64,000 bases of DNA from Parcubacteria group bacterium (GTDB lineage: Bacteria > Patescibacteriota > Minisyncoccia > Phycocordibacterales > Phycocordibacteraceae). Under the pieces are notes generated by a model. That model saw only the letters and a program-made list of their open reading frames with translations. It made no database searches and was not told the DNA's origin. The number at the start of each line of letters is the position of its first letter. Position 1 is the stretch's first letter. The stretch is taken from contig JAQBRG010000002.1 of NCBI GenBank assembly GCA_028286615.1, positions 31,235-95,234 of the forward strand, written 5' to 3'. Below, in pieces: positions 36,058 to 55,683 of this stretch. A program made the translations under genes and the position numbers.

Positions 36058-37872
36058 TTAAATCTTTCTCAACATATTCTTCTCAATATCTTCGAAGGTA
36101 CCTCCAACTTTCTTTCCAGGATTAAAGATATTCTCTGGATCAAAGATCTTCTTGGTGTCTGCAAACAGCATAACCATCTCGGTGCCAAAGAGCATTGGAA
36201 GGTATGGCGTACGGATAATCCCGTCGTTGTGTTCGCCGGTTGTGGTACCGCCATATTTAATAACAAGCTCGTACACCTTAGGAGAAAGCTCAAGAATAAC
36301 GCTGCGTGTCTCGGGCTTTGAGAGATCCATAAGGGGAATGATATGGAAGTTTCCGTTTCCAATGTGCCCGGCAATCGTATATATAAGTTTGTACTGCGCG
36401 AGAAGGGTGTTGAGCTCGGGCAAGAACTGCGGGTAGCAATCGGGAGGCACAACAAAATCGTCTATGAAAGGAGCGGCATAAAGGCCTTTTGAGTGCTGGC
36501 GTAAGAGCGCAAAGCTTTCGCGACGAATAATCCAGTACTTCTCTGAAGCTCTGTCGTTCTTGTTGATGCGTGTCTGCAAGTTCATGTCTGCAAGCGCAAC
36601 GCGTGCGCGCTCCGCAACATGAAGTGCATCTTCGGGAGTGTCTTCAGAAAACTCGGCCATTAACACAAGCTTCGGTACGCCGCCTTGAAGAACCAATCCA
36701 ACCTCAGGAAGGAACGAGAAACCGAGACGCATTGCGCGCACAAGACCCAAGCGCGCGAGCAGTCCAGGAAGGAATCGTATAGCGAGCTTGAACGTGTGGT
36801 CATCGTAGGACTCGAAAGATTCAGGATTGAAGGGAAGTACACGCCGTACAATCTCAGGCAACACGTTGAGATCTGAAAGGAAGATAACCAGCATGGCGCG
36901 TGAACGTTCTTCTTTAACCAAGCGAAGCCTGGCTTTGGTAACAAGGGCGAGCGTGCCCTGCGCTCCTGTTATGAGCTTTGCAAGATTAAAGCGCCCGTTC
37001 ACATCGATATCCCAAAGCGCATACCCAGCTGAGTTCTTTGAAACCTTTGGCTTCGCATTCTTAATGGTCTCCTTGTTGTCTTCAAGAAGCTTTGAGAGGT
37101 TCCTATATATGTCTCCTTCAAAGCTGTGGAGCTTTTGCTTCGCAAGAAGCTCGTTCTTTGAAAGAGCTTTGAACGTTGTTTCCGTACCGTCTGAAAGCAC
37201 TACGTCGAGTTCCTCAACGTAGTCATGGGTCTTGCCGTATTCAAGCGTGCGTTCGCCTCCTGAATCGTTATTAACAATCCCGCCCATAGCGCAGATCTCT
37301 CGGGACGCTGGGTATGAAGGCATGAGTTGCCCAAGTCCGTCTATCTTCTTAGCGAGCGTAGCCTTTTCGAAGTCTCGGTAATACACGCCGGGTTCAGTAA
37401 CGGCGTAGCCGTCTCCAACCTCAACGATATGATTCATGTGCTTTGTGAACACCGCAACCACCGAATCAGTAAGCGGACCTCCTGACATATCCGTTCCTGC
37501 AGATCGTGCGGTTACCGACACTGTCTTTCCTTTACGTCTTTCGTCTCGCACAACCTTAACCAATGCGGATACGTCATGCGCATCTTTTGGATACACCACG
37601 AGTTCCGGGGTCTTGGTGAATACGCTGGTGTCTCGACTATATTTTCCTCGCTCAGCAAGATCTTCAGATACCTCGCCATGTACTCGCGCTTTTATTGCAG
37701 TATATAGATCCGAATGCGTAACAGGCACAGAAGCTGACACTACTTCCTTAACCTCTTTTACTGCCTTCACTTTTTCAAATCCATGTACGTGCAGCAATTC
37801 ACGCACTATTGCATACGCAACCAGAACGGTTGCGAGAGTAGCGCCTAGGGTAGCAAGGTAAATTGGAAGCAT
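36058..37872 (-). CDS. FAD-linked oxidase (GlcD / D-lactate dehydrogenase-like) with N-terminal TM anchor
   Basis: FAD-binding PCMH region (VVYPKDAHDVSALVKVVRDE...TARSAGTDMSGGPL) and a C-terminal FAD-oxidase domain (HIGNGNFH, EHNDGIIR). Confidence 0.75.
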   Translation of the reverse strand: MLPIYLATLGATLATVLVAYAIVRELLHVHGFEKVKAVKEVKEVVSASVPVTHSDLYTAIKARVHGEVSEDLAERGKYSRDTSVFTKTPELVVYPKDAHDVSALVKVVRDERRKGKTVSVTARSAGTDMSGGPLTDSVVAVFTKHMNHIVEVGDGYAVTEPGVYYRDFEKATLAKKIDGLGQLMPSYPASREICAMGGIVNNDSGGERTLEYGKTHDYVEELDVVLSDGTETTFKALSKNELLAKQKLHSFEGDIYRNLSKLLEDNKETIKNAKPKVSKNSAGYALWDIDVNGRFNLAKLITGAQGTLALVTKARLRLVKEERSRAMLVIFLSDLNVLPEIVRRVLPFNPESFESYDDHTFKLAIRFLPGLLARLGLVRAMRLGFSFLPEVGLVLQGGVPKLVLMAEFSEDTPEDALHVAERARVALADMNLQTRINKNDRASEKYWIIRRESFALLRQHSKGLYAAPFIDDFVVPPDCYPQFLPELNTLLAQYKLIYTIAGHIGNGNFHIIPLMDLSKPETRSVILELSPKVYELVIKYGGTTTGEHNDGIIRTPYLPMLFGTEMVMLFADTKKIFDPENIFNPGKKVGGTFEDIEKNMLRKI

Positions 37873-39612: not shown

Positions 39613-40566
39613 ATGGAAGTATCGACTGAATCAGCGGCAATTAAGGTTGTTGACCTAAAAAAGGCATACAAAGGCAAGGGTAAAGGGGACCCGTCAGTAG
39701 ACGCTCTCAAGGGGATTAATCTCACGATTGAAAAGGGAGAATTCTTCGCACTCCTAGGCCCTAACGGTGCTGGCAAGACCACACTCATCAGCATTCTCTC
39801 AAGTCTTATCGTTAAAACTTCAGGAGAGGCGTACATCAGCGGCCTGTCTCTAGACAAGAATGCGGACGAAGCAAAGGCACACATCGGTCTCGTGCCCCAG
39901 GAATTTAACTTCAATATCTTCGAGACCCCGCTCGATATTGTAGTTTCGCAGGCTGGGTACTACGGTATTCCTCGCAAGATAGCTATTGAACGAGCAGAAC
40001 CAGTTCTCACAGCACTTGGTCTATGGGACAAGCGCAACACGCAGTCCATGAAGCTCTCTGGAGGTATGAAGCGCCGTCTACTTATTGCTCGTGCACTAGT
40101 CCATCAGCCTAAAGTGCTTCTGCTCGACGAACCAACGGCTGGAGTTGATGTAGAGCTTCGTCGCGGCATGTGGGAATTCCTTAGGAAGCTAAACGAAGAA
40201 GGGACTACTATCGTTCTCACCACGCACTACCTTGAAGAAGCTGAGCAGCTTTGCCGCCGTGTAGCAATCATCAACAAGGGAGAGATTATAAAAGAGGGAA
40301 GCGTGAAGGAATTGCTCAAGCAATTGAACTTTGTAACGCTTGTACTTGATACGCAAGAAGCAATAATCCCAGCTCAGGTAGCACTGGTACGAGATATGCC
40401 CGTTAAGGTGGTGGATGATACAACGCTCGAACTGACCCTTAAGCCAGGCGAGACGGTGAACGATTACATTCGCCAGATGTCTAAGATCGGCGTTCATATC
40501 CTTAATATTCGCAACAACGGAAGTCGCCTTGAAGAGATATTCGTGAACCTTATCGAGAAGAATTAG
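39613..40566 (+). CDS. ABC transporter ATP-binding protein
   Basis: Walker A GPNGAGKTT, signature LSGGMKRRL, Walker B LLLDEPTAGVD. Confidence 0.9.
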   Translation: MEVSTESAAIKVVDLKKAYKGKGKGDPSVDALKGINLTIEKGEFFALLGPNGAGKTTLISILSSLIVKTSGEAYISGLSLDKNADEAKAHIGLVPQEFNFNIFETPLDIVVSQAGYYGIPRKIAIERAEPVLTALGLWDKRNTQSMKLSGGMKRRLLIARALVHQPKVLLLDEPTAGVDVELRRGMWEFLRKLNEEGTTIVLTTHYLEEAEQLCRRVAIINKGEIIKEGSVKELLKQLNFVTLVLDTQEAIIPAQVALVRDMPVKVVDDTTLELTLKPGETVNDYIRQMSKIGVHILNIRNNGSRLEEIFVNLIEKN

Positions 40567-40567
40567 T

Positions 40568-41341
40568 ATGAAAAACTCTCCCGCACTCATCGGATTCAAT
40601 ACCATGGCTCGCAAAGAGCTGGTGCGTATTTTCCGCATCTGGTCTCAGACGCTGCTCCCACCCGTTGTTACCACAACCCTCTACTTCGTTATCTTCGGTG
40701 CATTCATCGGCTCACAAGTCGCACCCATCGCAGGATATTCATATATGCAGTTCATCATGCCCGGACTCATTATGATGACGATTATTACGAGTGCGTACAT
40801 GAACACGGTCTCTACCTTCTACTTCACGAAGTGGCAGAACACCATTGATGAGCTTCTTGTCTCACCTATGCCTCGCTGGTCTATTATTGCTGGCTATATT
40901 TTCGGAGGCGTGGCTCGCGCGATGATCGTGGGTGTGTTGGTGCTCATTGTTTCGCTCTTCTTCACACACCTACATGTGGCGAACCCGTTCATTATCTTCG
41001 CTGCAGCCTTTATGACAGCTCTCCTGTTCTCTCTAGCGGGTCTGGTGAACGGTATCTTCGCGAAGACCTTTGATGCGATTTCCATCGTGCCAACCTTTGT
41101 ACTTACACCGCTTACATACCTAGGGGGAGTCTTCTACTCAGTCTCGATGCTTCCTCCTATATTCCAGACCATCTCGTTCTTTAACCCTATTCTTTATATG
41201 GTTAATGCATTTAGATATGGATTCCTAGGTATATCAGATGTAAGTGTAGGACTATCGTTTGCGATTATGGGAGGAATATCAGTGGTACTTCTTGTACTAT
41301 CGCTCTGGCTCTTTAAGAGAGGTGTTGGCTTAAAGAATTAA
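40568..41341 (+). CDS. ABC-2 type transporter permease
   Basis: 257 aa with six TM helices. Starts 2 nt after the ATPase stop. Confidence 0.8.
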   Translation: MKNSPALIGFNTMARKELVRIFRIWSQTLLPPVVTTTLYFVIFGAFIGSQVAPIAGYSYMQFIMPGLIMMTIITSAYMNTVSTFYFTKWQNTIDELLVSPMPRWSIIAGYIFGGVARAMIVGVLVLIVSLFFTHLHVANPFIIFAAAFMTALLFSLAGLVNGIFAKTFDAISIVPTFVLTPLTYLGGVFYSVSMLPPIFQTISFFNPILYMVNAFRYGFLGISDVSVGLSFAIMGGISVVLLVLSLWLFKRGVGLKN

Positions 41342-41416: not shown

Positions 41417-41565
41417 TGCCCAATACGGGTGTCCGGGCCCCTTTCGCCCTATCTAGCAAGGTTGGTTTGAAAACCAATAATGTTAAGATAATTTTACGCA
41501 TATCTACTTGGGTATGTGATAGATGGAAAGGAGTCTGTGCCCATTATGGGTGTCAGGGTCCTTTT
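41417..41565. repeat. Two imperfect direct repeats (about 30 nt, 25/30 identical) about 120 nt apart in a convergent intergenic region
   Basis: Copy A is gtgcccaatacgggtgtccgggcccctttc (41417-41446). Copy B is gtgcccattatgggtgtcagggtccttttc (41537-41565). Each carries a ccc-N5-ggg mini-hairpin. Confidence 0.4.
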
Positions 41566-42272
41566 CTTTTTTGCACATTGTCAGGATTATCTAACTTATA
41601 AATAGAGACGTATTCTAGACTACAGTCGTGTGTCGTATCTACCAGTACATCTTTTGCCAACTTTCCTAAATAGTCAGCAAACTGAACAAAATCGGAATAA
41701 TCAGAATCTACCTGGGTAATATGTGAAAGTGACGGCAGATAGGATTTTTTTCTAAGATAATCTTTCAAGTTTTGCTCGTCCCTTTCATTTAACAGAAATC
41801 TGTCGAAGACAACTTCTATTTCTAGCCCTTTAGAAAATAATCCAGCATTATTCCTAGGCAAAATATCTTTCAAGAAGGTCTCCAGAGACCTTCTAATAAG
41901 AAAATTACTAAACCTCTTCGGGTTATGGCTAAACTTTTCATTACCCACTTCTAAATATGGGCCAGTATAGTTCTTCTTTGTTATGTGAAATATTCCTAAT
42001 TCGATACCTGGATTCTCGCTACATATTTCAAATAACTCACATAATTTCTTTTTGAATTTTGGAGTGATATATCGTTTTAGTTCTTTCCCCGCATCCTGAA
42101 AATAGCGGAAGCGAGAAAGGTGCTGCGAGATAACCTTTAGACTGCTGCGCGTAACAGCAACTATGTTCAATTGGTAGAAAGTACTGCTGTCGGGAGATTC
42201 CAAAGAACCCGGGTCTCCGCTTTCGTCTATGAAAAGGAATATTCGTTCTGGATTCTCTGGGTCTATATACAC
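41553..42272 (-). CDS. DUF3800-family protein
   Basis: N-terminal ERIFLFIDESGDPGS is the DUF3800 hallmark. Length is 239 aa. Confidence 0.6.
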   Translation of the reverse strand: MYIDPENPERIFLFIDESGDPGSLESPDSSTFYQLNIVAVTRSSLKVISQHLSRFRYFQDAGKELKRYITPKFKKKLCELFEICSENPGIELGIFHITKKNYTGPYLEVGNEKFSHNPKRFSNFLIRRSLETFLKDILPRNNAGLFSKGLEIEVVFDRFLLNERDEQNLKDYLRKKSYLPSLSHITQVDSDYSDFVQFADYLGKLAKDVLVDTTHDCSLEYVSIYKLDNPDNVQKRKGP

Positions 42273-44390: not shown

Positions 44391-44924
44391 ATGAACCCTA
44401 GTGACAATACGACAACTGGTTTCCATCTTTTCCTGATGCCTTCAGGGGAACTTAAAGAGACTCTTTCCGGAGTTATTAAGACGTTGGCAGAGAGATACCA
44501 GGGAGTGCTTTTTGAGCCACACGTAACGCTGATGAAAATACCCGAAGGGAACGAAGAGCAGGTGATATCTCTTGCACAGAGTTTTGCACAAAACAGCACG
44601 CCTATAACACTTTCTCTAGAAGACATGGGTATGGAAGAGACATTCTTCCGTGCTCTATACTTGAAAGTTAATCCGAACGAAGCCCTCGAAGCATTGCATG
44701 CTAGAGCAGCGAATGTATTCGGACTTAACGACGCTGGTGCCTTTACTCCGCACCTAAGTCTCTTCTATGGAAACGTACCAGAAGATCTTAAAAGGGAAAT
44801 GGTGTCCTCACTAACCCTTCCATTACCTCTCACCTTTATTGCAGAATCTTTACACGTATACAAAACAGGAGGCACTACAGAACAATGGGAACAGATTGCG
44901 GAATATCCGTTCCCTAAGTCTTAG
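44391..44924 (+). CDS. 2H phosphoesterase superfamily protein (LigT / cyclic phosphodiesterase-like)
   Basis: Two H-x-T/S-x motifs: PHVTLM and PHLSLF. Confidence 0.6.
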   Translation: MNPSDNTTTGFHLFLMPSGELKETLSGVIKTLAERYQGVLFEPHVTLMKIPEGNEEQVISLAQSFAQNSTPITLSLEDMGMEETFFRALYLKVNPNEALEALHARAANVFGLNDAGAFTPHLSLFYGNVPEDLKREMVSSLTLPLPLTFIAESLHVYKTGGTTEQWEQIAEYPFPKS

Positions 44925-45670
44925 TCCTGAGAGATTAGGTTTTTAACAAACTCCTCAGTATCTTCGGGCCCTGCTACGGCATGAGTTGGAATACCCGTTT
45001 CTTTTACAACCTCATCGTTTCCGTTAGGACCGAGCTCGTCTCCTATATAAAGCATTTCTGAAATTGGTACGTTGAGATGCTCGCTCAGTTTGCGTACTCC
45101 AAACGCCTTGTTGATACCATGCTTTGTTATGTCTATGGTTGTGGCACCTCCGCGCTTAACGTCGAAGTCTGGAAGCTGTGCAGATATTATTTCCCGAAGA
45201 GCATTTCGTTTCTCCCCGCTTGGATCCCATGCTTCTTTTTCCTCAACTGGTGCTTGCTGTCCAAGGGCGGATAGTGCAACCTGTGCCCCGCGGTTCTCAA
45301 TACGAGGTCCATGAGAAGGAATGCTTTGGTCAATAATATACGTTTCTTTCAAGACCTTCTCTAGCACCTCTTCAATCTTCGCTTCTTCTTGAGCACTAAG
45401 CCTTTCTTCGTATACAAGTGTCCATGCGTCGCGGTATTCGTGCAGTGCGGCGCCCGATGTGGGCATGAGATACAGCTTGTGCAAATCGGTGTCTTTAGGC
45501 AGCTGGTCAACAACTTGTTTCAAAAACTGCTCTAGTTTTCCTCCAGATATAATCCCAACACTCGTATGCGAAAGAAGCTCCTTCAGACTGCTCGCCATTG
45601 ATGGCGTAATTTCAGACTTGCTTCGTGCAAGTGTTCTGTCTATGTCGAACATAACAACGCGAGGAATCAT
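44921..45670 (-). CDS. HAD-IIB phosphatase/mutase resembling eukaryotic-type phosphomannomutase (PMM)
   Basis: VVMFDIDRTLARSKSEITPSMASSLKELLSHTSVGIISGGKLEQFLKQV aligns with the PMM2 N-terminus (LFDVDGTLTAPRQKITKEM...IGVVGGSDFEKVQEQL). C-terminal YIGDELGPNGNDEVV...AVAGPEDT aligns with FFGDKTMPGGNDHEI...TAPEDT. Confidence 0.65.
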   Translation of the reverse strand: MIPRVVMFDIDRTLARSKSEITPSMASSLKELLSHTSVGIISGGKLEQFLKQVVDQLPKDTDLHKLYLMPTSGAALHEYRDAWTLVYEERLSAQEEAKIEEVLEKVLKETYIIDQSIPSHGPRIENRGAQVALSALGQQAPVEEKEAWDPSGEKRNALREIISAQLPDFDVKRGGATTIDITKHGINKAFGVRKLSEHLNVPISEMLYIGDELGPNGNDEVVKETGIPTHAVAGPEDTEEFVKNLISQD

Positions 45671-47589
45671 AGATTGGGAAGTAGTTTCTTCATAAGCTTC
45701 TCCTTTGAAAGGGTGGCAACACCAAGAGAAGTATCCGCGCCTCCGTAATAGATATAGAGCGTATCGTCTCTAAGCACGATACCGCACGAAAAGACCACAT
45801 TCGGCACCATGCCCTCACGTTCCCAAGGGAGTACTGGCTCAAGTATTGGAGCAACGGTTCTTGCGATAACGGTAGTACCCGCCTCGTCCAGAAGTGCAGC
45901 ACCTAAGCGGTATTCGTGGTCTCCACCCACACCATGGTAAATAAAGAGCCAGCCTTCAGGAACTTTAATAGGTTGTGATGCAGCACCGACTTTAATGGCG
46001 TCCCACATTCCTGGTCGTGGGCCCATAAGCTCGATACAGCGGTTCGTCTCTCGGTTAGGGGGTAGTGTATCAAGTTCGTCGAGACAGATGTCTGGATCAA
46101 TGCGATGCATAAACAGGAACTTGCCAGCAACTGGCTCAGGGAATATCGCAATGTCTTTGTTGTTCATGCCCGCTGGAGTAACAAGCAAAGGGGTACTCCA
46201 CGCATCAAAACGTTTTGCGACAAAGTCTTCTACTGAAATACTGCTGTACGCACCACGTGTCTCATGCTCTCCATCGTATGCGGTGTAGCAAAGATGCACT
46301 CGATTCTCAAACACAATTGCTCTCGGATCTTCGCAGCCAGAGTTGCCATCTGGCTTCCCGTGCTTCTTCTCAAAGTCTTCTCGAGGAGCGTATGCTGGAA
46401 CATCTGAACGTTCATCCACATGCAGGCCGTCTGCAAGACGCGCATAACCCATAACCGAAGTGTTCTCTGCACCCATGGCTCGATACAGAAGATGTACAGA
46501 ACCTTCTACATCAATTGCTGCTGCGTTACATACTGAACGGGTCTCCCAAGCATTTTGTGTAGGGGAAAGTATAGGATTGCCCTCGAAACGAGTTGCGAAA
46601 GCAGCGCGGCCCTCTGGGGTCATGGTCTCAAGAAGATCTGAGAGCGAGAGAGTAGCAAGGGCTGAAGAGGTATCTGCAGCTCCGTAGTAGACAGAAAGAA
46701 TATCGCCCTCAATAACCGCGCTAGTGGGGAAGACTATGTTGCTAACAAGCCCGTACCGCTCGTATGACTCCTCGGGCACCATGAAAGGATAGCTAGTGCA
46801 GCCAATAATCTTTTGAGGATCATTTGCGTCAAGAAGAAGTGCCTCAACGCCAAAGAGACGTTTGTGCTCGTCGTAGTAATTCTGAATGTGAGAATAAATA
46901 AGAAGCCAGCCTTGAGGAATGCGTACCGGGGTTGCAGCAATCTCCATGTGCTCTGTATCAGAACGACGCACATCAGGAAGCGCGTGCTCAGCGAGGTTCT
47001 CGTGCCATTCTTTCCAGAATTCTGGATTCCAGAAGTCCTCAACCTGCTTTGCGCGAGCGATACCAATAGTTGGATGAGAATTAGCTTCAGTCCAATCGGT
47101 ATGCGCAGTTAACAACAGTACAACCTCTCCATTTATACGTTCAGGGAAAAGCGTGGCAGCTTTTGCATTAAAAGGCGTAACAAGATGCTTCTCAGTTAGA
47201 GTCGTGGGGCTGTCGCCAACAGCTACCGCAACTTTGATATTGTCGGGACCAAAAGGGTAACCTCCGAGGGCGGTGTAGAACACATACCATTTTCCTTCGA
47301 AGTACGTAGCTCGGGGATCTTCGCAACCATAGTGTTCCCATTCTTCAGTTGGAGATATAACCTGCTGGGACTCATCGAATACTGCCGTCTTGGTCGCTGC
47401 ATACCCAACAGTTGAAAAGGCTCGCCCTGGAGTCCGAATGGCATCTGGTTCCGCATGAGCTCTGTAGAACACGTGTCGCGTACCATCTTTGACAACAACT
47501 GAAGGATTGAATGCGCCAACAGCCTCAAATGCACGCCCACTGTTTGGAGCGATTATAGGATTCTCTGGTGAGCGTTTAACAACAAGCAT
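45667..47589 (-). CDS. Glycoside hydrolase family 130 (mannoside phosphorylase-like), tandem duplicated GH130 domains
   Basis: Two copies of GH130 signatures (FNPSVVVKDG...HVFYRA; YGCEDPRATYFEGKWYVFYTA; GCEDPRAIVFENRVHLCYTAY; EGWLFIYHGVG). Confidence 0.8.
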   Translation of the reverse strand: MLVVKRSPENPIIAPNSGRAFEAVGAFNPSVVVKDGTRHVFYRAHAEPDAIRTPGRAFSTVGYAATKTAVFDESQQVISPTEEWEHYGCEDPRATYFEGKWYVFYTALGGYPFGPDNIKVAVAVGDSPTTLTEKHLVTPFNAKAATLFPERINGEVVLLLTAHTDWTEANSHPTIGIARAKQVEDFWNPEFWKEWHENLAEHALPDVRRSDTEHMEIAATPVRIPQGWLLIYSHIQNYYDEHKRLFGVEALLLDANDPQKIIGCTSYPFMVPEESYERYGLVSNIVFPTSAVIEGDILSVYYGAADTSSALATLSLSDLLETMTPEGRAAFATRFEGNPILSPTQNAWETRSVCNAAAIDVEGSVHLLYRAMGAENTSVMGYARLADGLHVDERSDVPAYAPREDFEKKHGKPDGNSGCEDPRAIVFENRVHLCYTAYDGEHETRGAYSSISVEDFVAKRFDAWSTPLLVTPAGMNNKDIAIFPEPVAGKFLFMHRIDPDICLDELDTLPPNRETNRCIELMGPRPGMWDAIKVGAASQPIKVPEGWLFIYHGVGGDHEYRLGAALLDEAGTTVIARTVAPILEPVLPWEREGMVPNVVFSCGIVLRDDTLYIYYGGADTSLGVATLSKEKLMKKLLPNL

Positions 47590-47592
47590 GAA

Positions 47593-48753
47593 TTAGACAG
47601 TAGTGAGTAGTGGCGCTTGGTTGTGCAAGATGGAATCAATAAAGGAAGAAAGCTTAGCTCCTGCTGTACAGACTACCGAATCACCTCCGCCATAATACAC
47701 CTGAAGAGTGTCGTTCTGGATAGTAGCGCCGCAGGCATATACCACGCCTGGCTTACCCTCATTCTCGTAGTCTTCAACTGGCTCAAGTATGGGTCGAGGA
47801 GAACGAGCCAAGACCTTTGTTGGATCGTCTAGATCAAGAAGCATAGCCCCCATCTTATATTTGTGAGGCTGGCCCTTTTCCATGGCGTGATACAGAAGGA
47901 GCCACCCCCTATCAGTTCGCATGGGAGGGGGTCCTGCACCGCGCACTCGATCATGCCAGACTCCAGAGGACTCGTCTGCTGTGTCTGAACGAGCTCCTTC
48001 GTAACTTGATATGAAGGGCTTTGTCTTTCCAACATTATCCAACTCATCTACGTACTCAATTTCAACTTTCGGAAAGATGCTGTGTAGTATTGCGAATTTT
48101 CCATGTATCTTCTCTGGGAAAAGCATCCAGTTCTTATGTACTTGGTTAGGAGCAGAAAGGAATACTGGCTTAGTCCAGTTCCACTTTTTCTTCGCTAACT
48201 CATCTGCAAGAATTGAAGTAACCGCCATGCGCAAAGATTGCCAGTTATGAAAGGCAGAGAACGTGAGATATACACGGTCTTCAATCTGTACTGCACGCGG
48301 ATCTTCACACCCGCCCCAACTTCCTCCTGAAGCTACCAAGTTTGGGTAAGTCTTTTCGATATACGCGCGGTCCGTTGGGCGAAGAGCATCCTGGCCATCA
48401 AGAGAAAAGACCGGGTAGGGAAGTCGATCGTCTACAACTACTCCATCTTTTGATGTGGCATGACCTATGCGAGACACTCCATCTTTTCCAATTGCTCGAT
48501 AGAAAAGATGCGTAAGTCCATTTACGATAACTGCCCCAGGATTCATAACTCCCGCTGCCTCCCACTCGTGAGAAGTTGGAGAAAGGATAGGATTTCCTTT
48601 TGCGCGATTTAGTCGAAGGACTTCAAGAGCGACTCTGAATCCTTTCTCTACGCGCTCTATCCACAAGAACTGCCATATCCCGTACAGGAAGAGAATGGTG
48701 GTTACGCTTGCCGCGATTATCGCTGGAATAATAACTAGGAAGTCGCTATCCAT
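47593..48753 (-). CDS. Glycoside hydrolase family 130 protein with N-terminal transmembrane anchor
   Basis: TM helix VIIPAIIAASVTTILFLYGIWQFLWI. GH130 motifs MNPGAVIVNG...HLFYRAIG, GGCEDPRAVQIEDRVYLTFSAF, RGWLLLYHAM. Confidence 0.8.
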   Translation of the reverse strand: MDSDFLVIIPAIIAASVTTILFLYGIWQFLWIERVEKGFRVALEVLRLNRAKGNPILSPTSHEWEAAGVMNPGAVIVNGLTHLFYRAIGKDGVSRIGHATSKDGVVVDDRLPYPVFSLDGQDALRPTDRAYIEKTYPNLVASGGSWGGCEDPRAVQIEDRVYLTFSAFHNWQSLRMAVTSILADELAKKKWNWTKPVFLSAPNQVHKNWMLFPEKIHGKFAILHSIFPKVEIEYVDELDNVGKTKPFISSYEGARSDTADESSGVWHDRVRGAGPPPMRTDRGWLLLYHAMEKGQPHKYKMGAMLLDLDDPTKVLARSPRPILEPVEDYENEGKPGVVYACGATIQNDTLQVYYGGGDSVVCTAGAKLSSFIDSILHNQAPLLTTV

Positions 48754-48755
48754 AG

Positions 48756-49112
48756 TTATGTTATACGGCCGAAGTCGTCTTCAACTCGTTCAATATCGTT
48801 CTCGTCGAACTCCCCACGCGCAATCTCCAAGACTTTGATGCCAGCAGGGCCGCCCGTAAGACGATGAAGGGTATCTACTGGAATCTCAATCCGGTCTCCA
48901 ACGGATACTTCTTTCTCCACGTCTCCAATATGAACGGTGCCGCTACCCTCTATAACTTGCCAAAACTCAGAGCGTCTCGAATGTTTCTGTAGAGAGAATC
49001 GCTTCTCAGGGTGTACCGTCAGAATCTTAACGGTACACGGTTCGTTATGTATGAATTGGTCAAATCCACCCCAGGGACGGTCTTCGTGGTATGTGTCTAG
49101 GTTCATGGCCAT
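48756..49112 (-). CDS. Cupin-domain protein, type II mannose-6-phosphate isomerase-like
   Basis: EDRPWGGFDQF is the RPWG motif of cupin-type MPI. Metal-binding pattern QKHSRRSEFWQVIEGSG...H. Length 118 aa. Confidence 0.65.
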   Translation of the reverse strand: MAMNLDTYHEDRPWGGFDQFIHNEPCTVKILTVHPEKRFSLQKHSRRSEFWQVIEGSGTVHIGDVEKEVSVGDRIEIPVDTLHRLTGGPAGIKVLEIARGEFDENDIERVEDDFGRIT

Positions 49113-49177: not shown

Positions 49178-49678
49178 TTAGTTGCTAAGACAGAATTTGG
49201 CGCTGCCTGGAATAGGACCCTCTGCATGTCCATCAGCACATACGGTTACGCGTGCTGTGGCGAAATCTTGAACGATGGTGTATCCCGTATCGTAGTTTTC
49301 TCCTGAGGCACACGTTGGGGCCGTACATGTGTTAAACCCTTCCTTTGGATCCATAGGCAATTCGCTCATGTATGTAGGCACAAGACATGGCCTAATGTCG
49401 AAGCCGCTTTGCGAATTAGCCATAGGAAGTTTAACTGCGGGTAACGACGCGCAGGAGCCTTTAGGAAAGATACCCCTGTTATCAGCAAGACGCTGACCAA
49501 TACCGTTAAGTATGGCTGCCACGTTCGCTTCACGTTGCGAGTTTCTTGCCTGAGCAAACTGCCTCATGGGATTAATAGACACAATCACAACAGTTGCCAG
49601 AATTGCGAGCATGCCAATAACGACAAGAATTTCGATGAGGGTAAAACCTCGCTGCACAGGGTTGGTAGTAATATGCAT
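49178..49678 (-). CDS. Type IV pilin / pseudopilin (prepilin-type N-terminal cleavage/methylation domain)
   Basis: Leader plus RGFTLIEILVVIGMLAILATVV is the class III signal peptide. Length 166 aa. Confidence 0.8.
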   Translation of the reverse strand: MHITTNPVQRGFTLIEILVVIGMLAILATVVIVSINPMRQFAQARNSQREANVAAILNGIGQRLADNRGIFPKGSCASLPAVKLPMANSQSGFDIRPCLVPTYMSELPMDPKEGFNTCTAPTCASGENYDTGYTIVQDFATARVTVCADGHAEGPIPGSAKFCLSN

Positions 49679-49750
49679 GGAATTATTATTAGTCTGGTAC
49701 GCCTAGAGCATACGCAAACACACCCCTGGTTTCTGCTAGAAAACGATAAA

Positions 49751-50116
49751 TTATTTATGAAATGTGAATTGCCGCTCTACGACTACAGATTCTGATCGCC
49801 CTTGAGTAGCGACAGTATAAGAATCGCCATGCAATTCAACGCTTAAAACACTGCACGTTAGATCTCGGTCAAGCGTTAGAACGTCACCTGATGGAGCTGG
49901 TCTGTAAGAAGGAATTATTTTCAGCTTCCTTTGCACAAGCTCAGCACATGCTATAGCCTGTGCTTTTGCTTGTGTGTGGAGTTCTGCTTCAAAAAGTGTG
50001 AGCCTAAGAGAAATAATCTCTCTAGCTCCTTGAAGAACAAGGACTATAAGCACTGAACTAATGACCAGGATGCTAATTAACGCTGCGTACCCTCGATGTA
50101 GTTTGGTACTCTTCAT
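49751..50116 (-). CDS. Hypothetical small pilus-associated protein (hydrophobic N-terminus, no canonical G-FTLIE)
   Basis: 121 aa. N-terminal YAALISILVISSVLIVLVL. Embedded in the pilin operon and overlaps the upstream gene by 4 nt. Confidence 0.4.
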   Translation of the reverse strand: MKSTKLHRGYAALISILVISSVLIVLVLQGAREIISLRLTLFEAELHTQAKAQAIACAELVQRKLKIIPSYRPAPSGDVLTLDRDLTCSVLSVELHGDSYTVATQGRSESVVVERQFTFHK

Positions 50117-50535
50117 GGCAGATAAAGTCGCGCACTGTATGTTGTCGAGGCAATCGAGAATGAATACTCATAAATTTCAGATATAGATACCTTAAAATCA
50201 GTAACAACAATATTGTTACTATTTAAAGGCATGGCAACTGTATTTTTCTTTAAAATAAAGTCTCCTTCGTCACTATAAAACTTCACTACATCACCCGTGT
50301 TGTTTTGAAGGACTAAGATCTCTGAGGAAGTGTCACCCGTCTGAACAATAAATCCTTGGTCTTCAAACGAAGATATTTTTGCAAGTATAAACAAAGCCTC
50401 TTCCTTGGAGACTATTTCAATATGGTTTTCTTCAGCTGAGCTTTGGACTTGTAAATAGCAAGCAATTAGACCAGAAACCAAGATGCTAAACAGTGCGATG
50501 TATATGAGTGTTTCAAATAAGGTAAATGCACGCAT
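50113..50535 (-). CDS. Pseudopilin / minor pilin
   Basis: MRAFTLFETLIYIALFSILVSGLIA is a prepilin-type N-terminus. Confidence 0.7.
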   Translation of the reverse strand: MRAFTLFETLIYIALFSILVSGLIACYLQVQSSAEENHIEIVSKEEALFILAKISSFEDQGFIVQTGDTSSEILVLQNNTGDVVKFYSDEGDFILKKNTVAMPLNSNNIVVTDFKVSISEIYEYSFSIASTTYSARLYLP

Positions 50536-50537
50536 AA

Positions 50538-52007
50538 CTAAGAGCCAGCTATGGCTGTTAAATACCCAAAACCCAAGCTATTCGAAGAGGCTACATATAA
50601 AGTGCCGCCATGACATTTAAGTGCGCTTGCCGTCTGGTTAACCCCAAGAGGCGTCTGATATATCTGTTTGGTGTTAGCGGTGTTATATGTGTCCCATATA
50701 CCAAGCTCGTTCCCGGTAAGAAGAAATGCAAGATCTCCCTGAGACTCAATCCCATACACATTCTTATAGGTGTGTTGGGTGTAGCTATTTCCTAACCCGC
50801 CGTCTGGTTTGAGGTCGAAAGAATAAAATTCAGGCACCGTATCATTTACGTGTGTTCTTACAAAGAGAAGACGATCTCCAGAAATAGCGAGATCTCGAGG
50901 GTATGCGATACCCGGTACTTGAAGTCCTGTTCCAACTTTCTTAATGGATCGTGGGTTGCTAATGTCTAGGACCAGTAAGTCTACGCCAGTATTGCTGTGA
51001 TCTTCCGTAGCGACATATGCATAATTCCCTTGCACAAGAATTGCCTCAACACCAAGTCCTATACGATAGCTTCCAAGTAGAACCAGTCGCGCAGGATTCC
51101 TAGCATCAAGAATATTGAACTCGCTACCTGCTTTTGTCTTTACTAATCCAACGTAGAGTCGATGTTGGTAATAGGTAAGACTTTGAACCGCTGCGCTGCG
51201 CCCGTTCGCATCTATAGCTTTAGGAGTCGAGGATGTCGGGAATTTATAACTGCTAAGGAAAGACGATTTGTTACTCGCACTGAGTTTATAAGTTCTAATC
51301 TGATCACACGAAGATGCTGTTCTGCATGTGACTGCACTAGCGCTTCCGAAGGAGTTTCCTGCGTATGCATATCCATCTCCAATCTCTACAGCGGAAAACC
51401 CAACTGTACTCATCGGTGCATTATCAAAGCTCGCAATTGTTTTCGGAGAAGCTGGGTTTACGAGGTTCACAAAAAAGATAGTCGGATCACTTACCCTTGA
51501 AGTAGACTGAACTGTAATTGCCGCTAAAGTGTCTGAGAAAGCGAGGTCAGTAATTGGATAGGAGCCCTTGGGAGTAACACGAGCACTCGAAACAGCACGA
51601 GCACGAGACCAATCTCCTGTGGGTACGGGATCGCAATCTGAATTAAGATTTTCAGTATTTGTAATTGCTGAACGTACTGATGCAAAGCGTGTCTCACCCA
51701 TACCATCCTCCCAGGAAATTGTGGCCGAGAATTTCTTTGTGGCCCCGTTTGCCGTTGAAGAAGAGGCACCGCTTGTCTCATAAGAACCTATGGTAGTAGT
51801 CCCAATGGTAATTATGTTTGAGAAATTACCCTTTGCTCGTATCCGTGCATCATCAAGCATTTCAGAAACTTGGTCTATTGCAGTACCGCGTAAGGCAATA
51901 TTTTCAAGCATCGTTGGGGTACCAAGCACCACTAACAAAACCGCTACTAGTGTGCTGATACCAATAGCAAACGCAATAAGTATTTCAAGAGTAGAAAAGC
52001 CTCGCAT
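50538..52007 (-). CDS. Large pilin-like protein with prepilin N-terminus and beta-propeller-like (LVIVD-type) repeats, candidate tip adhesin
   Basis: MRGFSTLEILIAFAIGISTLVAVLLVVLG. Its 489 aa include repeated blocks ending in ...YAYVA..., ...LLVLDISNP... and ...LYVASSN... Confidence 0.65.
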   Translation of the reverse strand: MRGFSTLEILIAFAIGISTLVAVLLVVLGTPTMLENIALRGTAIDQVSEMLDDARIRAKGNFSNIITIGTTTIGSYETSGASSSTANGATKKFSATISWEDGMGETRFASVRSAITNTENLNSDCDPVPTGDWSRARAVSSARVTPKGSYPITDLAFSDTLAAITVQSTSRVSDPTIFFVNLVNPASPKTIASFDNAPMSTVGFSAVEIGDGYAYAGNSFGSASAVTCRTASSCDQIRTYKLSASNKSSFLSSYKFPTSSTPKAIDANGRSAAVQSLTYYQHRLYVGLVKTKAGSEFNILDARNPARLVLLGSYRIGLGVEAILVQGNYAYVATEDHSNTGVDLLVLDISNPRSIKKVGTGLQVPGIAYPRDLAISGDRLLFVRTHVNDTVPEFYSFDLKPDGGLGNSYTQHTYKNVYGIESQGDLAFLLTGNELGIWDTYNTANTKQIYQTPLGVNQTASALKCHGGTLYVASSNSLGFGYLTAIAGS

Positions 52008-52018
52008 ATAAGTAGAAG

Positions 52019-52462
52019 TTATTCATTGACGCGGATGCCGCCTTCAGAATTTATAAATATGGTATCCATATGATCTGGATATACGAGATGCATTGAGCCC
52101 GGATTTAAGACCCCACCATCTTGTGCACTGAATACGATCTCGGTTAGGCCTTCCACGTGAAAATCTTGTTCTTGATTTACACGCTCCCCATCGTTTGTAC
52201 GGTCTACATACGAGGAGCCTTCAAATCGAACGAAAGAATTATTTATGTAGATAACCCCGTGAGAGGGAGGGTGTGCGCATGATTCAGCACACGCACCCTG
52301 AAGCGTGTCTGCGCGGGCACGTCGGAGCATCTCCACCACTATTTCTGTCTCGTTACGGTTCTGTGCACGGGTAAGGCTCGTAACTTCAACAACACTCATC
52401 ACTAAGCCAATAGAAACCAGAGCAAGCACTATAAGAGTCTCGAATATTGTGAAGCCCCTCAT
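52019..52462 (-). CDS. Pseudopilin / minor pilin
   Basis: MRGFTIFETLIVLALVSIGLVMSVVEV is a prepilin-type N-terminus. Confidence 0.75.
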   Translation of the reverse strand: MRGFTIFETLIVLALVSIGLVMSVVEVTSLTRAQNRNETEIVVEMLRRARADTLQGACAESCAHPPSHGVIYINNSFVRFEGSSYVDRTNDGERVNQEQDFHVEGLTEIVFSAQDGGVLNPGSMHLVYPDHMDTIFINSEGGIRVNE

Positions 52463-52464
52463 AG

Positions 52465-53538
52465 TTAACGGATGCCTACATCCTGAGTTATCTGGTACAC
52501 AGGCGTAATGATTGCTAAAGCAATGAAGCCAACCATAAGACCGATGACAATCATCAATACCGGCTCAATGAGAGTCGCAAGATCTTTTGAAAGCTGCTCC
52601 AGCTCCTCCTCATACATACGTTCGATAATCGAGAGGCTTTGATGGAGCGTGCCAGTTGCCTCTCCTGTTGAAAGCAGTTGTATGCAAGAAAGGGGAATCA
52701 GACGAGTCTGAGACTTGAATGCGTCTGAAATTTTCCCTCCTGCTCGCACTGTCTGCACAGCTTGTATGAGAACTTCTCTGTACAACAAAGAAGGGCTCGC
52801 TTCCGCAGCAAGGGCGAGCGCTGGCATGAGTTGTACACGATTAGCGACTAACGTGGATAGGACATGACCCAAAGACGTTAAGGCATGTGCCTTAAACACA
52901 CGCCCAAGAAGTGGAATGGCGTAAAGAAATTTCTCACGAGCACGTTGTATGTGCTCGTATCGCTGTGCCCACCAAAACACCGAGATAAGAATTATTATTC
53001 CCATAAACACATACAGCCCATAATCCGACGTGAAGTTGCTCACCTTAATAAGTAATCGAGTTGAAAAGGGAAGCTCTGATTTGAAGCCTTCGAACAGAGG
53101 AACTATTTTTGGAAACGCGTAGGTAGTTAGCATTATGCAGATTCCAATGGTTGATATCACAATAATGCCAGGATATATAAGAGCACTTAACGCCTTTTGA
53201 CGTACTGTACGTTGTTTCTTTAGTGTTAAGCCTGCGTGCTCAAGGCTATCCGCAAGAGTGCCACTACTCTCTCCCATGCGAATAAGGGTTATGGTGAAGT
53301 GATCAAAATGTCGCGGAAATTCGTTGAGTGCATCCGCGAGCGCTCGTCCAGCGGACACAGCCTTAGCAAGTGAGGTAATGATAAAGACAGTTCCTTTATT
53401 TCTTTCTGTCTCTTGCATAAAGTCGAGTGCAGTAAGAAGCGGCATGCCAGATGCGAGGAATGTTGAAAGCTGGCGCGCGAAGAGAATGCGTTCCTGAGCC
53501 CCAAACATAAGGAAAAGAGGTCTCTCGTTATTGCGCAT
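52465..53538 (-). CDS. Type IV pilus / T2SS platform protein (PilC/GspF family)
   Basis: 357 aa with duplicated GspF domains and three TM segments (ARQLSTFLASGMPLLTAL ... LATLIEPVLMIVIGLMVGFIALAI). Confidence 0.85.
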   Translation of the reverse strand: MRNNERPLFLMFGAQERILFARQLSTFLASGMPLLTALDFMQETERNKGTVFIITSLAKAVSAGRALADALNEFPRHFDHFTITLIRMGESSGTLADSLEHAGLTLKKQRTVRQKALSALIYPGIIVISTIGICIMLTTYAFPKIVPLFEGFKSELPFSTRLLIKVSNFTSDYGLYVFMGIIILISVFWWAQRYEHIQRAREKFLYAIPLLGRVFKAHALTSLGHVLSTLVANRVQLMPALALAAEASPSLLYREVLIQAVQTVRAGGKISDAFKSQTRLIPLSCIQLLSTGEATGTLHQSLSIIERMYEEELEQLSKDLATLIEPVLMIVIGLMVGFIALAIITPVYQITQDVGIR

Positions 53539-54769
53539 GGCAGACTCGTAAGACCTCAGAGAGGGTGGTAATACCGCTTGCCGCTTTTCGTATTCCGTCG
53601 AGCATCAGTGAGTGCAAACCTAACGGCGTACCTATACTCCCTCCAAATATATCTTCAGGATCACCAAACAAGACCTCGGGAACTAAGTCACGAGGCTCGA
53701 CCACCTCGTAAAGCCCAACTCGTCCCTTAAAGCCATTTGCGCAGGACGCACACCCAACCCCTTTAAAGAGTTTCTGAGGAATCCTCTCATTTGCAGGCAG
53801 CATCTCAGAAAGCAGGTGTTGTTCATTTAACGACGGAGTATGTTCAACTTTGCATTCTGCACATATACGACGTACTAGTCTTTGGGCAATAATCAGTCTG
53901 ACTGTAGAGGCAAGGAGATAGGGCTCAACCCCAAGATCGAGAAGACGAGGAATCGAGGTGAGCGCATCAGTAGCATGTAGCGTCGACAAGACCAGGTGCC
54001 CTGTAAGAGCAGCGTTTATGGCCAGTCCGGCGGTCTCCCTATCTCGTATCTCTCCAACAATGAGCACATCTGGATCCTGCCGAAGAATTGCACGTAGGCC
54101 AGTTGAGAAGGTTAATCCTGCGCTGTGATTAGTTTCAATTTGGCGTACACCAGGAAGAGAATACTCGATAGGGTCTTCAATCGATACTAGAGAACGGTCA
54201 GGAATATTAAGTATTTTCGCAAACGTATAAAGTGATGACGTTTTTCCGCTGCCTGTAGGGCCTGTAACAAGAATGAGGCCGTGTGGGTGAGTAAGGGTGT
54301 TTTCTATCTTTACGCGATGCTCATCCATAAAACCAAGACCTTCAAGAGTCATGGACTCTGATCGAGGAGAAAGAAGACGTAGAACAACGTTGCCGCCATG
54401 ATACGTAGGCATAATTGATACTCGGATATCGAGCCAGTCGTGAGAAGACAGAGCAAATCTAAATCGGCCGTCCTGAGGAAGCTGGTGCTCATCCGTTCGT
54501 AACCCAGCTAACACACGAACTCGTGAAAGAAGCTCTGCGTGTATCTTTTGCGGGAACTTGTAGCGTTCTTCAAGAATTCCGTCACAACGGAATCGTATTC
54601 TTACTGATTCTCCCTCGGGGTCCATGTGTAGATCAGAGGTTCCAGCAACTTGTGCCTCACCGATCAAAGCATCTAAAAGAGCTATTACTGAAAGTCGATC
54701 ACCATTTGAAAGTTCTCTGTTAACTGCTGTATTTTTTTGACGACTCTTACGTGTTGTTTGTTCTGGCAT
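53528..54769 (-). CDS. Type IV pilus assembly ATPase (PilB/GspE family)
   Basis: Walker A LVTGPTGSGKTSSLY, Asp box ILRQDPDVLIVGEIRD, His box. C-terminal tetra-Cys CAECK...CASC. Confidence 0.9.
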   Translation of the reverse strand: MPEQTTRKSRQKNTAVNRELSNGDRLSVIALLDALIGEAQVAGTSDLHMDPEGESVRIRFRCDGILEERYKFPQKIHAELLSRVRVLAGLRTDEHQLPQDGRFRFALSSHDWLDIRVSIMPTYHGGNVVLRLLSPRSESMTLEGLGFMDEHRVKIENTLTHPHGLILVTGPTGSGKTSSLYTFAKILNIPDRSLVSIEDPIEYSLPGVRQIETNHSAGLTFSTGLRAILRQDPDVLIVGEIRDRETAGLAINAALTGHLVLSTLHATDALTSIPRLLDLGVEPYLLASTVRLIIAQRLVRRICAECKVEHTPSLNEQHLLSEMLPANERIPQKLFKGVGCASCANGFKGRVGLYEVVEPRDLVPEVLFGDPEDIFGGSIGTPLGLHSLMLDGIRKAASGITTLSEVLRVCHAQ

Positions 54770-55275: not shown

Positions 55276-55683
55276 TTAGCTGCCAAAGAGTCTTTCTCTG
55301 GCAGCTTTTTTCGCTGCCTCGAATTCAGAATCAGAAAGTGTATGCATTTTCCACTTGAGACGTTTTGAGCTCACAGGTCTAGTTTGCGACAAAATTGCGG
55401 CCGCTTCTGTTTCTCTTACTTCTCCTAGTGGATAGTAGAAAACAGAATCCTTAATCTGTGAACTTAGCGGGATACCAATAAACAGGTTCTTATTAAACTT
55501 TCTTACAATTAAGATAGGTCTTAAGAAATCACCACCGCTACCGTTCTCCTCATGGCCTACATTCTTGCCTAAGTGACAAAGCCAGACCTCTTTGACCCGA
55601 AAGCGCGGAATATCTGACGGCAATCTCGAATCAATTTGTTTCTTTAATAAATGCCACCTATCTAGATCTTCTTGTTTTGACAT
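55276..55683 (-). CDS. MazF/PemK-family toxin-like endoribonuclease (orphan)
   Basis: VWLCHLGKNVGHEENGSGGDFLRPILIVRKFNKNLFIGIPLSS matches the MazF/PemK pattern (W...G.E..G.RP.LV.S........V.PLTS). Confidence 0.55.
   Translation of the reverse strand: MSKQEDLDRWHLLKKQIDSRLPSDIPRFRVKEVWLCHLGKNVGHEENGSGGDFLRPILIVRKFNKNLFIGIPLSSQIKDSVFYYPLGEVRETEAAAILSQTRPVSSKRLKWKMHTLSDSEFEAAKKAARERLFGS

Follow-up and report, generated by a model that had tools for sequence, protein, structure and literature searches.

A conserved Patescibacteria operon joins a predicted beta-1,2-mannoside phosphorylase to two divergent GH130 modules and may interconvert beta-1,2-mannosides and fructose-6-phosphate

What do bacteria with very small genomes do with three enzyme modules for a rare mannose linkage? 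The question is raised by four adjoining genes of a Parcubacteria group bacterium (GenBank assembly GCA_028286615.1, contig JAQBRG010000002.1), which lie in the 64,000-nucleotide stretch (forward-strand positions 31,235 to 95,234) that we analyzed as a whole and refer to as the window. They encode a small cupin, a GH130 protein with an N-terminal membrane helix, a second GH130 protein with two modules in tandem, and a haloacid dehalogenase (HAD) protein that resembles phosphomannomutase (PMM). A first-pass annotation, made from the DNA letters, had read them as a mannoside phosphorolysis cluster that salvages host or partner mannans or N-glycans. Here we find that the key residues of all three GH130 modules point to beta-1,2-mannosides, that one of the three keeps the complete phosphate site of a phosphorylase, and that the other two belong to conserved subfamilies of the candidate phyla radiation (CPR) in which this site has been remodeled. 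We propose that the four genes could form a module interconverting Man-beta1,2-Man glycosides and fructose-6-phosphate (Fru-6-P) inside the cell.

The linkage that a GH130 enzyme recognizes, and whether it uses phosphate, have been traced to a few residues. We took residue roles from published work (PMC12814180, PMC7660257, PMC4599007, PMC4264767), anchored the numbering on printed HMMER alignments and read the key columns after aligning the three window modules with their orthologs and the solved sequences in MAFFT. The roles of the proton-donor Asp (D104 in UhgbMP) and of the -1 subsite Asn and Asp follow PMC4264767. In UhgbMP numbering the phosphate-binding pair R168/H231 marks GH130 phosphorylases, and a second pair reports linkage, being Y103/R150 in beta-1,4 enzymes and Glu/Lys in beta-1,2 enzymes (Li et al. 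2020, PMC7660257). K184, R202 and R242 are key residues in Uhgb_MS numbering (PMC12814180), and carboxylates substitute for basic residues in BT3780 hydrolases (PMC4599007).

All three modules share the -1 Asn, the +1 Arg, the Glu-Asp pair with the catalytic Asp, the beta-1,2 Lys, a Tyr and the C-terminal Asp. The catalytic Asp is D151 in the membrane-anchored module, D91 in the N-terminal module of the tandem protein (N module) and D421 in its C-terminal module (C module); it is invariant in all orthologs, as are the -1 subsite Asn/Asp residues (N71/D358, N28/D306 and N355/D619 in the same order). The linkage pair reads E150/K207, E90/K143 and E420/K478. Among the best 150 of 396 homologous representatives, the Glu is found in 150 of 150 and the Lys in 149 of 150. 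The Tyr/Arg pair of the beta-1,4 enzymes (GH130_1 and GH130_2) occurs in none of the three modules, which have Glu and Lys instead, and the UhgbMP and BfMGP structures are weak sequence matches to the window proteins. The closest solved structures for every module are Teth514_1788 and Teth514_1789 of Thermoanaerobacter sp. X-514 (GH130_6; PDB 9FJ8 and 7FIP), a beta-1,2-oligomannan and a beta-1,2-mannobiose phosphorylase, at 31-42% identity, followed by Lin0857 and Uhgb_MS. The Teth514 pair shares with the window modules the -1 Asn/Asp/Asp set, the catalytic Asp and the beta-1,2 Glu and Lys. The Glu/Lys signature is diagnostic and predicts a GH130_4/_6-like beta-1,2 type for all three modules; on its presence in each we rejected a beta-1,4-mannan or N-glycan substrate.

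The phosphate site divides the modules. The first-pass annotation had tied phosphorolysis to the catalytic Asp and the phosphate-binding residues: the Asp is present in all three, and the Arg/His pair is kept solely in the C module. The signature of the C module runs N355, R370, E420, D421, K478, H495-R496, K533, Y551-H552 and D619, which includes a full phosphate site like that of the Teth514 pair; the third basic residue is Lys (K533), a feature shared with Teth514_1789. Among solved structures the module is closest to Teth514_1788 (E 1.2e-51), followed by Teth514_1789 (E 8.5e-50). The NCBIfam model for beta-1,2-mannobiose phosphorylase scores the whole 640-residue protein at 378 bits, with its best stretch in the C module and an equivalog cut-off of 450. 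By its residues, the C module carries the full set that defines a reversible beta-1,2-mannoside phosphorylase (beta-mannoside + phosphate <-> alpha-mannose-1-phosphate, Man-1-P).

The N module has intact sugar-subsite and catalytic residues (N28, R43, E90, D91, K143, Y232 and D306) and a phosphate site in which T161 stands for the Arg, S233 for the His and E213-H214-M215-E216 at the Lys/Arg site. Residues 158-178 hold zero Arg or Lys under both the MAFFT and the HMMER alignments, and the consensus over ~120 clusters of this type, which we call DHxE, is K-A-[L/F]-[T/S] ... [D/E]-H-x-E ... Y-S-[Y/H]. Both apparently stand-alone N-type proteins that we checked (L082, L083) turned out to be split or fragmented tandem genes. 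The module looks hydrolase-like because of its acidic D/E-H-x-E motif, by analogy with BT3780. In the GH130_3 mannosidases BT3780 and BACOVA_03624 the basic phosphate ligands are replaced and carboxylates are present (PMC4599007), and both retain the beta-1,2 Lys (K199), a Glu beside the catalytic Asp and that Asp, as the window modules do. Glu227, the putative base of BT3780, falls by residue spacing at the phosphate-Arg position, where the N module has Thr/Ser, whereas the N-module acids at 213 and 216 sit near the third basic site. Signal peptides occur in the surveyed GH130_3 group, though none was detected on BT3780 itself, and the tandem protein lacks one; the GH130_3 mannosidases are also a weaker match to the N module (E 7e-11) than the phosphorylases are.

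The membrane-anchored module, whose type we call SxR, keeps its sugar subsites as well (N71, R86, E150, D151, K207, Y288, H289 and D358). At its phosphate site the His (H289) is kept, S225 stands for the Arg and V270 for the Lys/Arg, and a new invariant Arg, R271, follows directly; there is no added carboxylate of the GH130_3 kind. An insertion of ~22 residues ending in SGGSWGG precedes the catalytic Glu-Asp. Across the 120 closest anchored-type clusters the Arg site (position 202) is Ser in 99, Asn in 10, Gly in 8, Ala in 3 and Arg in 0, the new Arg (position 243) is present in 120 of 120, and the third basic site is hydrophobic or Pro throughout. Over 12 orthologs the mean pairwise identity is 66% for the N module, 60% for the C module and 54% for the anchored module. 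The N module, with the highest conservation, is therefore not a decaying copy, and the sequences indicate that both non-canonical modules are under purifying selection. In the survey of Li et al. none of the 15 meta-nodes has either pattern: nowhere is the proton donor conserved where the Arg/His pair is lost and the base position lacks a carboxylate. Tandem GH130-GH130 proteins appear there as a mere four to six rarities (PMC7660257). We consider it very probable that the anchored and N modules are not ordinary phosphorylases; by their residues they bind the same sugars as the C module but lack the canonical means of holding phosphate.

How did the anchored module arise, and on which side of the membrane does it work? 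An AlphaFold2 model of the 386-residue protein (mean predicted local distance difference test score, pLDDT, 89) has a helix at residues 3-46, and its top Foldseek matches are GH130 structures, the best being Teth514_1788/1789 (TM-score 0.81-0.83 normalized to the target). The membrane helix that the first-pass annotation had reported is well supported: hydropathy averages 2.6 on the Kyte-Doolittle scale over 19 residues, and a comparable N-terminal helix occurs in 119 of the 120 closest homolog clusters. Summed over the 120 sequences, just 6 Lys and Arg residues precede the helix, compared with 390 in the 15 positions that follow it, and there is no positively charged N-region of the Sec signal-peptide type. 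Because of this charge bias the N-terminus is predicted to lie outside and the propeller in the cytoplasm. In an exhaustive search of 1.84 billion representative proteins, which gave the 396 homologs at E <= 1e-30, the best 150 comprise 97 SxR-type, 50 canonical and 3 other sequences. Most SxR-type representatives are unanchored and carry an unannotated N-terminal domain of ~270 residues instead of the helix; the helix-anchored form is that of the 120 closest clusters, and those with a named source come from Parcubacteria-group or unclassified bacteria. A neighbor-joining tree resolves three module clades, each with Patescibacteria and Chloroflexi sequences. The partner from Chloroflexi in the anchored clade, a soluble protein, has the canonical His-Arg ... 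Lys pattern; the SxR type therefore derives from an ordinary phosphorylase.

The ~270-residue domain is spread over many CPR lineages; it is found in L015 (3907-5775), P0246, P0250, P0253 and ~60 other representatives and has no Pfam match; weak BNR and GH32N hints suggest that it is possibly a degenerate propeller.

The products of a mannoside phosphorylase would need a mutase and an isomerase to reach Fru-6-P, and the two remaining genes have the features of such enzymes. The HAD protein has a full-length match to the alpha-phosphoglucomutase PgmH of Lactococcus lactis (PDB 4BND; E 1.1e-41, 38% identity). Its end-to-end alignment with PMM2, claimed in the first-pass annotation, is also found (E ~1e-13; 1e-10 to 1e-16 for PMM2 and PMM1, 25% identity), although PMM2 is not its closest relative. 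The protein has the HAD-IIB core, the PMM-type cap and all the catalytic motifs of PgmH and PMM1/PMM2: D9-x-D11-x-T13, K18, R127, Q138, K145, K188, D211 and N218-D219, with a motif III Lys and motif IV GDxxxxGNDxE. The catalytic and cap motifs are invariant in 14 orthologs, and DIDRTL, which replaces DVDGTL as first noted, leaves DxDxT intact. It has Lys, Gln and Lys, the same as in 4BND, at the positions of PMM2 Arg21, Arg134 and Arg141. These motifs predict an intact PgmH/PMM-type phosphohexomutase. A mannosyl-3-phosphoglycerate phosphatase or another HAD-IIB phosphatase was rejected, as those matches are at subfamily level and the full-length PgmH match is far stronger. PgmH of L. lactis is reportedly glucose-specific; for the window protein the genomic context argues for mannose phosphates, since its gene overlaps the tandem GH130 gene by 4 nucleotides (nt) and a homolog is fused to a phosphomannose isomerase (PMI) cupin (L092), and we infer that it acts on Man-1-P and mannose-6-phosphate (Man-6-P).

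The cupin aligns to positions 361-466 of the 467 in the GMP_PMI model TIGR01479, the last ~106 positions, which is the type II PMI domain of ManC/AlgA. Unlike those enzymes it stands alone at 118 residues and lacks the guanylyltransferase domain. It retains RPWG, SLQxHxxRxExW, a later His and a DIxRxxDxxGR tail, and in 12 orthologs RPWG (residues 12-15), Q42, H44, E49, H83 and a DIxRxxDxxxR tail are invariant. Q42, H44, E49 and H83 are presumably the metal ligands, all intact; the AlgA-type motif has three consecutive His residues, two of which are Ser and Arg here. A search of PDB sequences with the cupin returned weak generic cupins only (E ~0.005), and we know of no characterized stand-alone type-II PMI cupin. 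We predict that it is such a domain, with isomerase activity.

The layout of the four genes is that of one operon (Table 1). The open reading frames (ORFs) called in the first-pass annotation are all present, on the minus strand, and the motifs it quoted are there too (GCEDPR three times, FNPS, MNPG, WLLLYH, DIDRTL and RPWG). Spacing is 2 nt from the cupin to the anchored GH130 gene and 3 nt from there to the tandem gene. The cupin matches PF01050 (MannoseP_isomer) at 7.7e-21 and 74.9 bits (cut-off 23.6), in agreement with its earlier recognition by RPWG; the 386-residue protein matches PF04041 (GH130) at 8.4e-34; and the tandem protein matches PF04041 at 5.1e-82 in two stretches, which bears out the duplicated domains noted before. 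The HAD protein matches PF03332 (PMM) at 9.1e-14 over model positions 2-219 of 221, and also TIGR01484 (HAD-IIB). In NCBI records the two GH130 proteins (JWN64_98 and JWN64_97) are each called "hypothetical protein", and the HAD protein is entered as "Eukaryotic phosphomannomutase". A terminator-like hairpin directly 3' of the HAD stop codon is the probable end of the operon, a call for which the consensus scan is weak evidence (9 sites in the region, 4.5 expected from shuffles). A promoter scan was uninformative (7 sites, 6.6 expected), and an Rfam scan of the window gave zero matches.

Table 1. Features of the operon and an associated gene in the window
Feature	Positions	Strand	Evidence
Type-II-PMI cupin, 118 aa	48756-49112	-	ORF; PF01050
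GH130 protein with N-terminal membrane helix, 386 aa	47593-48753	-	ORF; PF04041
Tandem GH130-GH130 protein, 640 aa	45667-47589	-	ORF; PF04041, two stretches
PMM-like HAD-IIB protein, 249 aa	44921-45670	-	ORF; PF03332, TIGR01484
Codons of predicted transmembrane helix, ~residues 5-32 of anchored GH130	48658..48741	-	Kyte-Doolittle, homologs, AlphaFold2
N-terminal GH130 module of tandem protein, residues 1-329 (DHxE type)	46603..47589	-	
C-terminal GH130 module of tandem protein, residues 330-640	45670..46602	-	
Terminator-like hairpin, 10-bp stem, directly 3' of HAD stop	44887-44914	-	Consensus scan
FAD-linked oxidase, 604 aa, GlcD/YdiJ-like D-2-hydroxyacid dehydrogenase family	36058-37872	-	Pfam, NCBIfam

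The same four genes travel together. Their order (cupin, anchored GH130, tandem GH130, HAD) is found in ~12 Patescibacteria metagenome-assembled genomes at 50-70% protein identity in a scan of one genome per species, and they co-occur as a unit in more than 20 CPR loci with changing flanks; ~30 related loci were examined in all, and neighbors were annotated in ~14. Two gene fusions argue that the parts are functionally coupled: in L092 a 362-residue HAD::cupin protein (38% identical to the window HAD and 41.5% to the window cupin) is encoded directly upstream of the GH130 genes, and the 971-residue P0244 joins SxR, N and C modules in the gene order of the window. Beyond the CPR, Dehalococcoidia keep a single-domain and a tandem GH130 gene as a pair without cupin or HAD, and Bathyarchaeota and Thorarchaeota have single-domain relatives of the C module. 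No cupin or HAD gene lies within 6 kb of the Chloroflexi and Bathyarchaeota GH130 genes, whose surroundings are uninformative: the neighbors include an FGGY kinase and nuo genes (L013) or a GT4 and a major facilitator superfamily (MFS) transporter (L017).

A further partner is possibly the FAD-linked oxidase. In most lineages its ortholog comes after the HAD gene, is joined to it or stands ahead of the cupin. Eleven loci carry it downstream of HAD, nine of them with nothing in between and two (L001 and L002) with a TerC gene interposed, and in L090 it is upstream of the cupin; HAD::FAD-oxidase fusions of 834-902 residues (ORF or gene-call lengths) occur in L007, L008, L009, L075, L084 and L087. 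In the window the gene is ~7 kb from the operon.

The informative neighbors in the annotated related loci are biosynthetic. In L089 a triple-GH130 gene overlaps the end of a ManC gene, and the operon also encodes a UDP-glucose/GDP-mannose dehydrogenase, a weak BcsS-like protein, an epimerase and a 652-residue cellulose-synthase-like GT2. DedA and a small GT2 follow the module directly in L092; GT2, DedA or GtrA, BacA and an ABC-2 transporter stand alongside it in L084 and L088; GT2, GT4 and DedA lie near it in L090, and a cytidylyltransferase-like gene in L093. Transport genes are inconsistent, with MFS transporters in L083 and L090 and ABC exporter-type genes in L092. The 64-kb window itself contains no ManC, glycosyltransferase or sugar importer, and neither the window nor the ~14 annotated loci contain a solute-binding protein or a secreted glycosidase.

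The triple GH130 of L089 (971 residues) is the last gene of what appears to be a polysaccharide-synthesis operon (1018-9916). Of the envelope-type genes that recur beside the module (small GT2 of ~240 residues, DedA/VTT, BacA, GtrA and DrrAB-like ABC-2; L084, L088, L090 and L092), the window has the ABC-2 transporter alone (39613-41341). The small GT2 has about the size of a polyprenyl-phosphate glycosyltransferase. We rejected the DrrAB-like transporter as a part of the module, since it is syntenic in 10 loci but unrelated housekeeping genes are equally so.

From these observations we envision a scenario in which the operon serves as a conserved CPR module. The C module would convert Man-beta1,2-Man and Man-1-P into each other, the HAD mutase Man-1-P and Man-6-P, and the cupin isomerase Man-6-P and Fru-6-P, and the three GH130 modules would share the labor on one beta-1,2-mannoside. 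The DHxE module would be hydrolase-like, with a carboxylate replacing phosphate as base or nucleophile activator. The SxR module would work at the cytoplasmic face of the membrane and use something in place of free phosphate, most likely either water or, if it runs toward synthesis, a nucleotide-sugar or Man-1-P as donor. The substrate would be an intracellular or membrane-proximal beta-1,2-mannoside pool that the cell makes itself, built from and returned to Fru-6-P. The chances of this explanation in its entirety are about even. The biochemical skeleton from GH130 through Man-1-P and Man-6-P to Fru-6-P is probable on sequence grounds; it had been put forward in the first-pass annotation, and strict co-occurrence and the fusions support it. 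The substrate then attached to it, host or partner mannan or N-glycan, is not supported, given Glu/Lys in place of Tyr/Arg and the absence of a solute-binding protein or secreted glycosidase from the loci searched. An endogenous rather than scavenged substrate we put at a little short of even. It is favored because no such protein was found with the module, beta-1,2-mannans have been reported in few organisms, the informative neighbors point to biosynthesis, and the module persists in very small genomes; the preference over scavenging is modest and the direction is unproven.

The first-pass annotation had mentioned that an anchored GH130 might act in reverse in glycan synthesis. That idea is somewhat strengthened because the phosphate Arg is lost, the predicted location is cytoplasmic and the neighbors in related loci are biosynthetic. 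A precedent is offered by the GT108 enzymes MTP1-7 of the Leishmania mannogen cycle, which like the window set are paralogous five-bladed propellers; GT108 enzymes act on cytosolic beta-1,2-mannan, and both sets are linked to hexose-phosphate metabolism and have kept the phosphate Arg in some members and lost it in others. An Arg-to-His change at the phosphate position abolishes phosphorylase activity in GT108, and the natural His enzymes are GDP-mannose transferases (PMC10913872); the beta-1,2 GH130 phosphorylases tested so far all have some GDP-mannose transferase activity. The replacement differs, being His in GT108 and Ser/Asn/Gly/Ala or Thr/Ser in the CPR modules, and GT108 is eukaryotic. 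We do not place the window proteins in GT108: no GT108 chain is among the phmmer PDB matches, and Foldseek gives MTP2 at E ~1e-7 with TM-score ~0.5-0.6 and 12-14% identity. This analogy makes the SxR module a candidate transferase or synthase, although it could instead be a further hydrolase. We speculate that CPR bacteria both synthesize and use up a beta-1,2-mannan, or a membrane-proximal beta-1,2-mannoside, of their own, as a bacterial counterpart of the Leishmania mannogen reserve cycle, in which SxR would be the synthase or transferase (membrane-tethered in Parcubacteria), the canonical module the phosphorylase returning Man-1-P, DHxE a trimming hydrolase, and the PgmH-type mutase and mini-PMI the route to Fru-6-P. 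In this full form the proposal is unlikely to be right.

Several points weigh against a self-made pool and the roles given to its enzymes. The characterized bacterial GH130 phosphorylases have all been assigned catabolic roles, a phosphate-rich cytoplasm favors phosphorolysis, and a hydrolase-like module points to breakdown. R271 of the anchored module might reach the phosphate site, and the carboxylates of the N module correspond to Glu268 of the BT3780 mannosidase only by residue spacing. The predicted cytoplasmic orientation follows from the positive-inside rule, and the SxR type does not depend on a membrane anchor: most of its representatives have the ~270-residue domain instead. The closest characterized relative of the HAD protein by sequence is a phosphoglucomutase, and the ManC, GT2 and DedA neighbors are found in related loci and not in the window.

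Part of this would fit a catabolic salvage of beta-1,2-mannooligosaccharides from a host or the environment, cut in the cytoplasm with a division of labor like that of Teth514_1788/1789 and passed as Man-1-P through mutase and isomerase to glycolysis, with a saving of ATP where sugar-kinase capacity is small. The canonical C module, the hydrolase-like N module and the PMM and PMI leading to Fru-6-P are all as expected for such a route, and the adjacent GH130 genes of Thermoanaerobacter have different chain-length preferences (PMC4264767). That cluster and the window operon both set several adjoining GH130 genes next to an enzyme that uses Man-1-P. Unlike Teth514, the window has two modules fused, one anchored and two of three without the phosphate Arg, and its partners are PMM and PMI where Teth514 has ManC and GT4. 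The Thermoanaerobacter cluster has a five-gene ABC importer and a GH5, both absent beside the window operon, and neither the window nor any annotated locus showed a dedicated sugar importer, a solute-binding protein or a secreted glycosidase with the module. Even for Thermoanaerobacter the authors found no natural beta-1,2-mannan source for the genus (PMC4264767). Together with the biosynthetic neighbors and the broad retention of the module in very small genomes, this leaves salvage rather unlikely, if the strongest competitor to the self-made pool.

The biosynthetic neighbors would also suit a module that sets the Man-1-P/GDP-mannose pool (Fru-6-P to Man-6-P to Man-1-P) for polyprenyl-phosphate-mannose and surface glycans, with the GH130 modules buffering or recycling mannose. 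ManC is translationally coupled to the triple GH130 in L089, the L092, L084, L088 and L090 neighborhoods described above are of the envelope type, and the Thermoanaerobacter pair likewise has ManC and GT4 (PMC4264767). However, none of these neighbors lies within the window, keeping three GH130 modules would be costly for a buffer, and the synteny may largely reflect shared ancestry, as unrelated genes for HisRS and an RRM protein are syntenic too; we regard a donor-supply role as distinctly unlikely. A housekeeping alpha-phosphoglucomutase like PgmH, incidentally adjacent to GH130 genes that then belong to no single pathway with it, would account for 4BND as the best solved match and for the shared Lys/Gln/Lys set. 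Eukaryotic PMMs of the HAD fold accept both hexose phosphates, though, and the HAD gene overlaps the tandem gene, stays beside GH130 genes in most loci examined and is fused to the PMI cupin in L092, all of which makes this reading very improbable. Over these alternatives we favor the interconversion of a self-made beta-1,2-mannoside pool and Fru-6-P.

The remainder of the window holds other features of interest. A complete Gabija anti-phage system (GajA 18076-20139, PADLOC E 1e-275; GajB 20139-21881, E 4e-246) lies in an island of low GC content (0.40-0.42, compared with 0.44-0.55 over the rest of the window), and is followed by an N6/N4 DNA methylase gene (23236-24129) and a DUF6997/type II restriction-enzyme-like gene (24132-24932). 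A 423-residue GH18 protein (57176-58447; PF00704 4e-32), with a weak match to the TIM barrel of the endo-beta-N-acetylglucosaminidase EndoS and no NCBIfam name, is encoded at a distance of 8 kb from the GH130 genes, with which it shows no synteny elsewhere. Type IV pilus or pseudopilin genes occupy 49178-54769 and 61848-62438, the first set, immediately upstream of the operon on the same strand, including a PilB-like ATPase (53528-54769), a PilC-like protein (52465-53538) and several N-methyl pilins. Most related genomes lack this arrangement, and a link to the pilus genes was rejected, as the pilin, response-regulator and kinase flanks are unconserved except in the closely syntenic L084. A MazF/PemK-type toxin gene (55276-55683), a DUF3800 gene (41553-42272) and a 2H-phosphoesterase gene (LigT/CPDase-like, 44391-44924), which converges on the HAD gene with a 4-nt overlap, are found beside the module in none of the other loci compared.

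GH130 function is now predicted from few residues, with Arg/His taken to mean phosphorolysis, a carboxylate at the Arg site hydrolysis, and Glu/Lys or Tyr/Arg the linkage. Here we describe two large and strongly conserved CPR subfamilies that fit neither the phosphorylase nor the hydrolase rule and that always accompany a canonical phosphorylase, sometimes in one polypeptide. Their public names ("hypothetical protein", "GH43/DUF377 family glycosyl hydrolase", "beta-1,2-mannobiose phosphorylase") show that automatic annotation is uninformative for some and probably wrong for others. Knowing what these variants do would extend the continuum of hydrolases, phosphorylases and transferases on the GH130 fold, and would explain why genomes of less than 1 Mb set aside ~4 kb for a linkage that is rare. 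Should the product be endogenous, Parcubacteria would gain one of their few proposed pathways for a carbohydrate reserve or the envelope.

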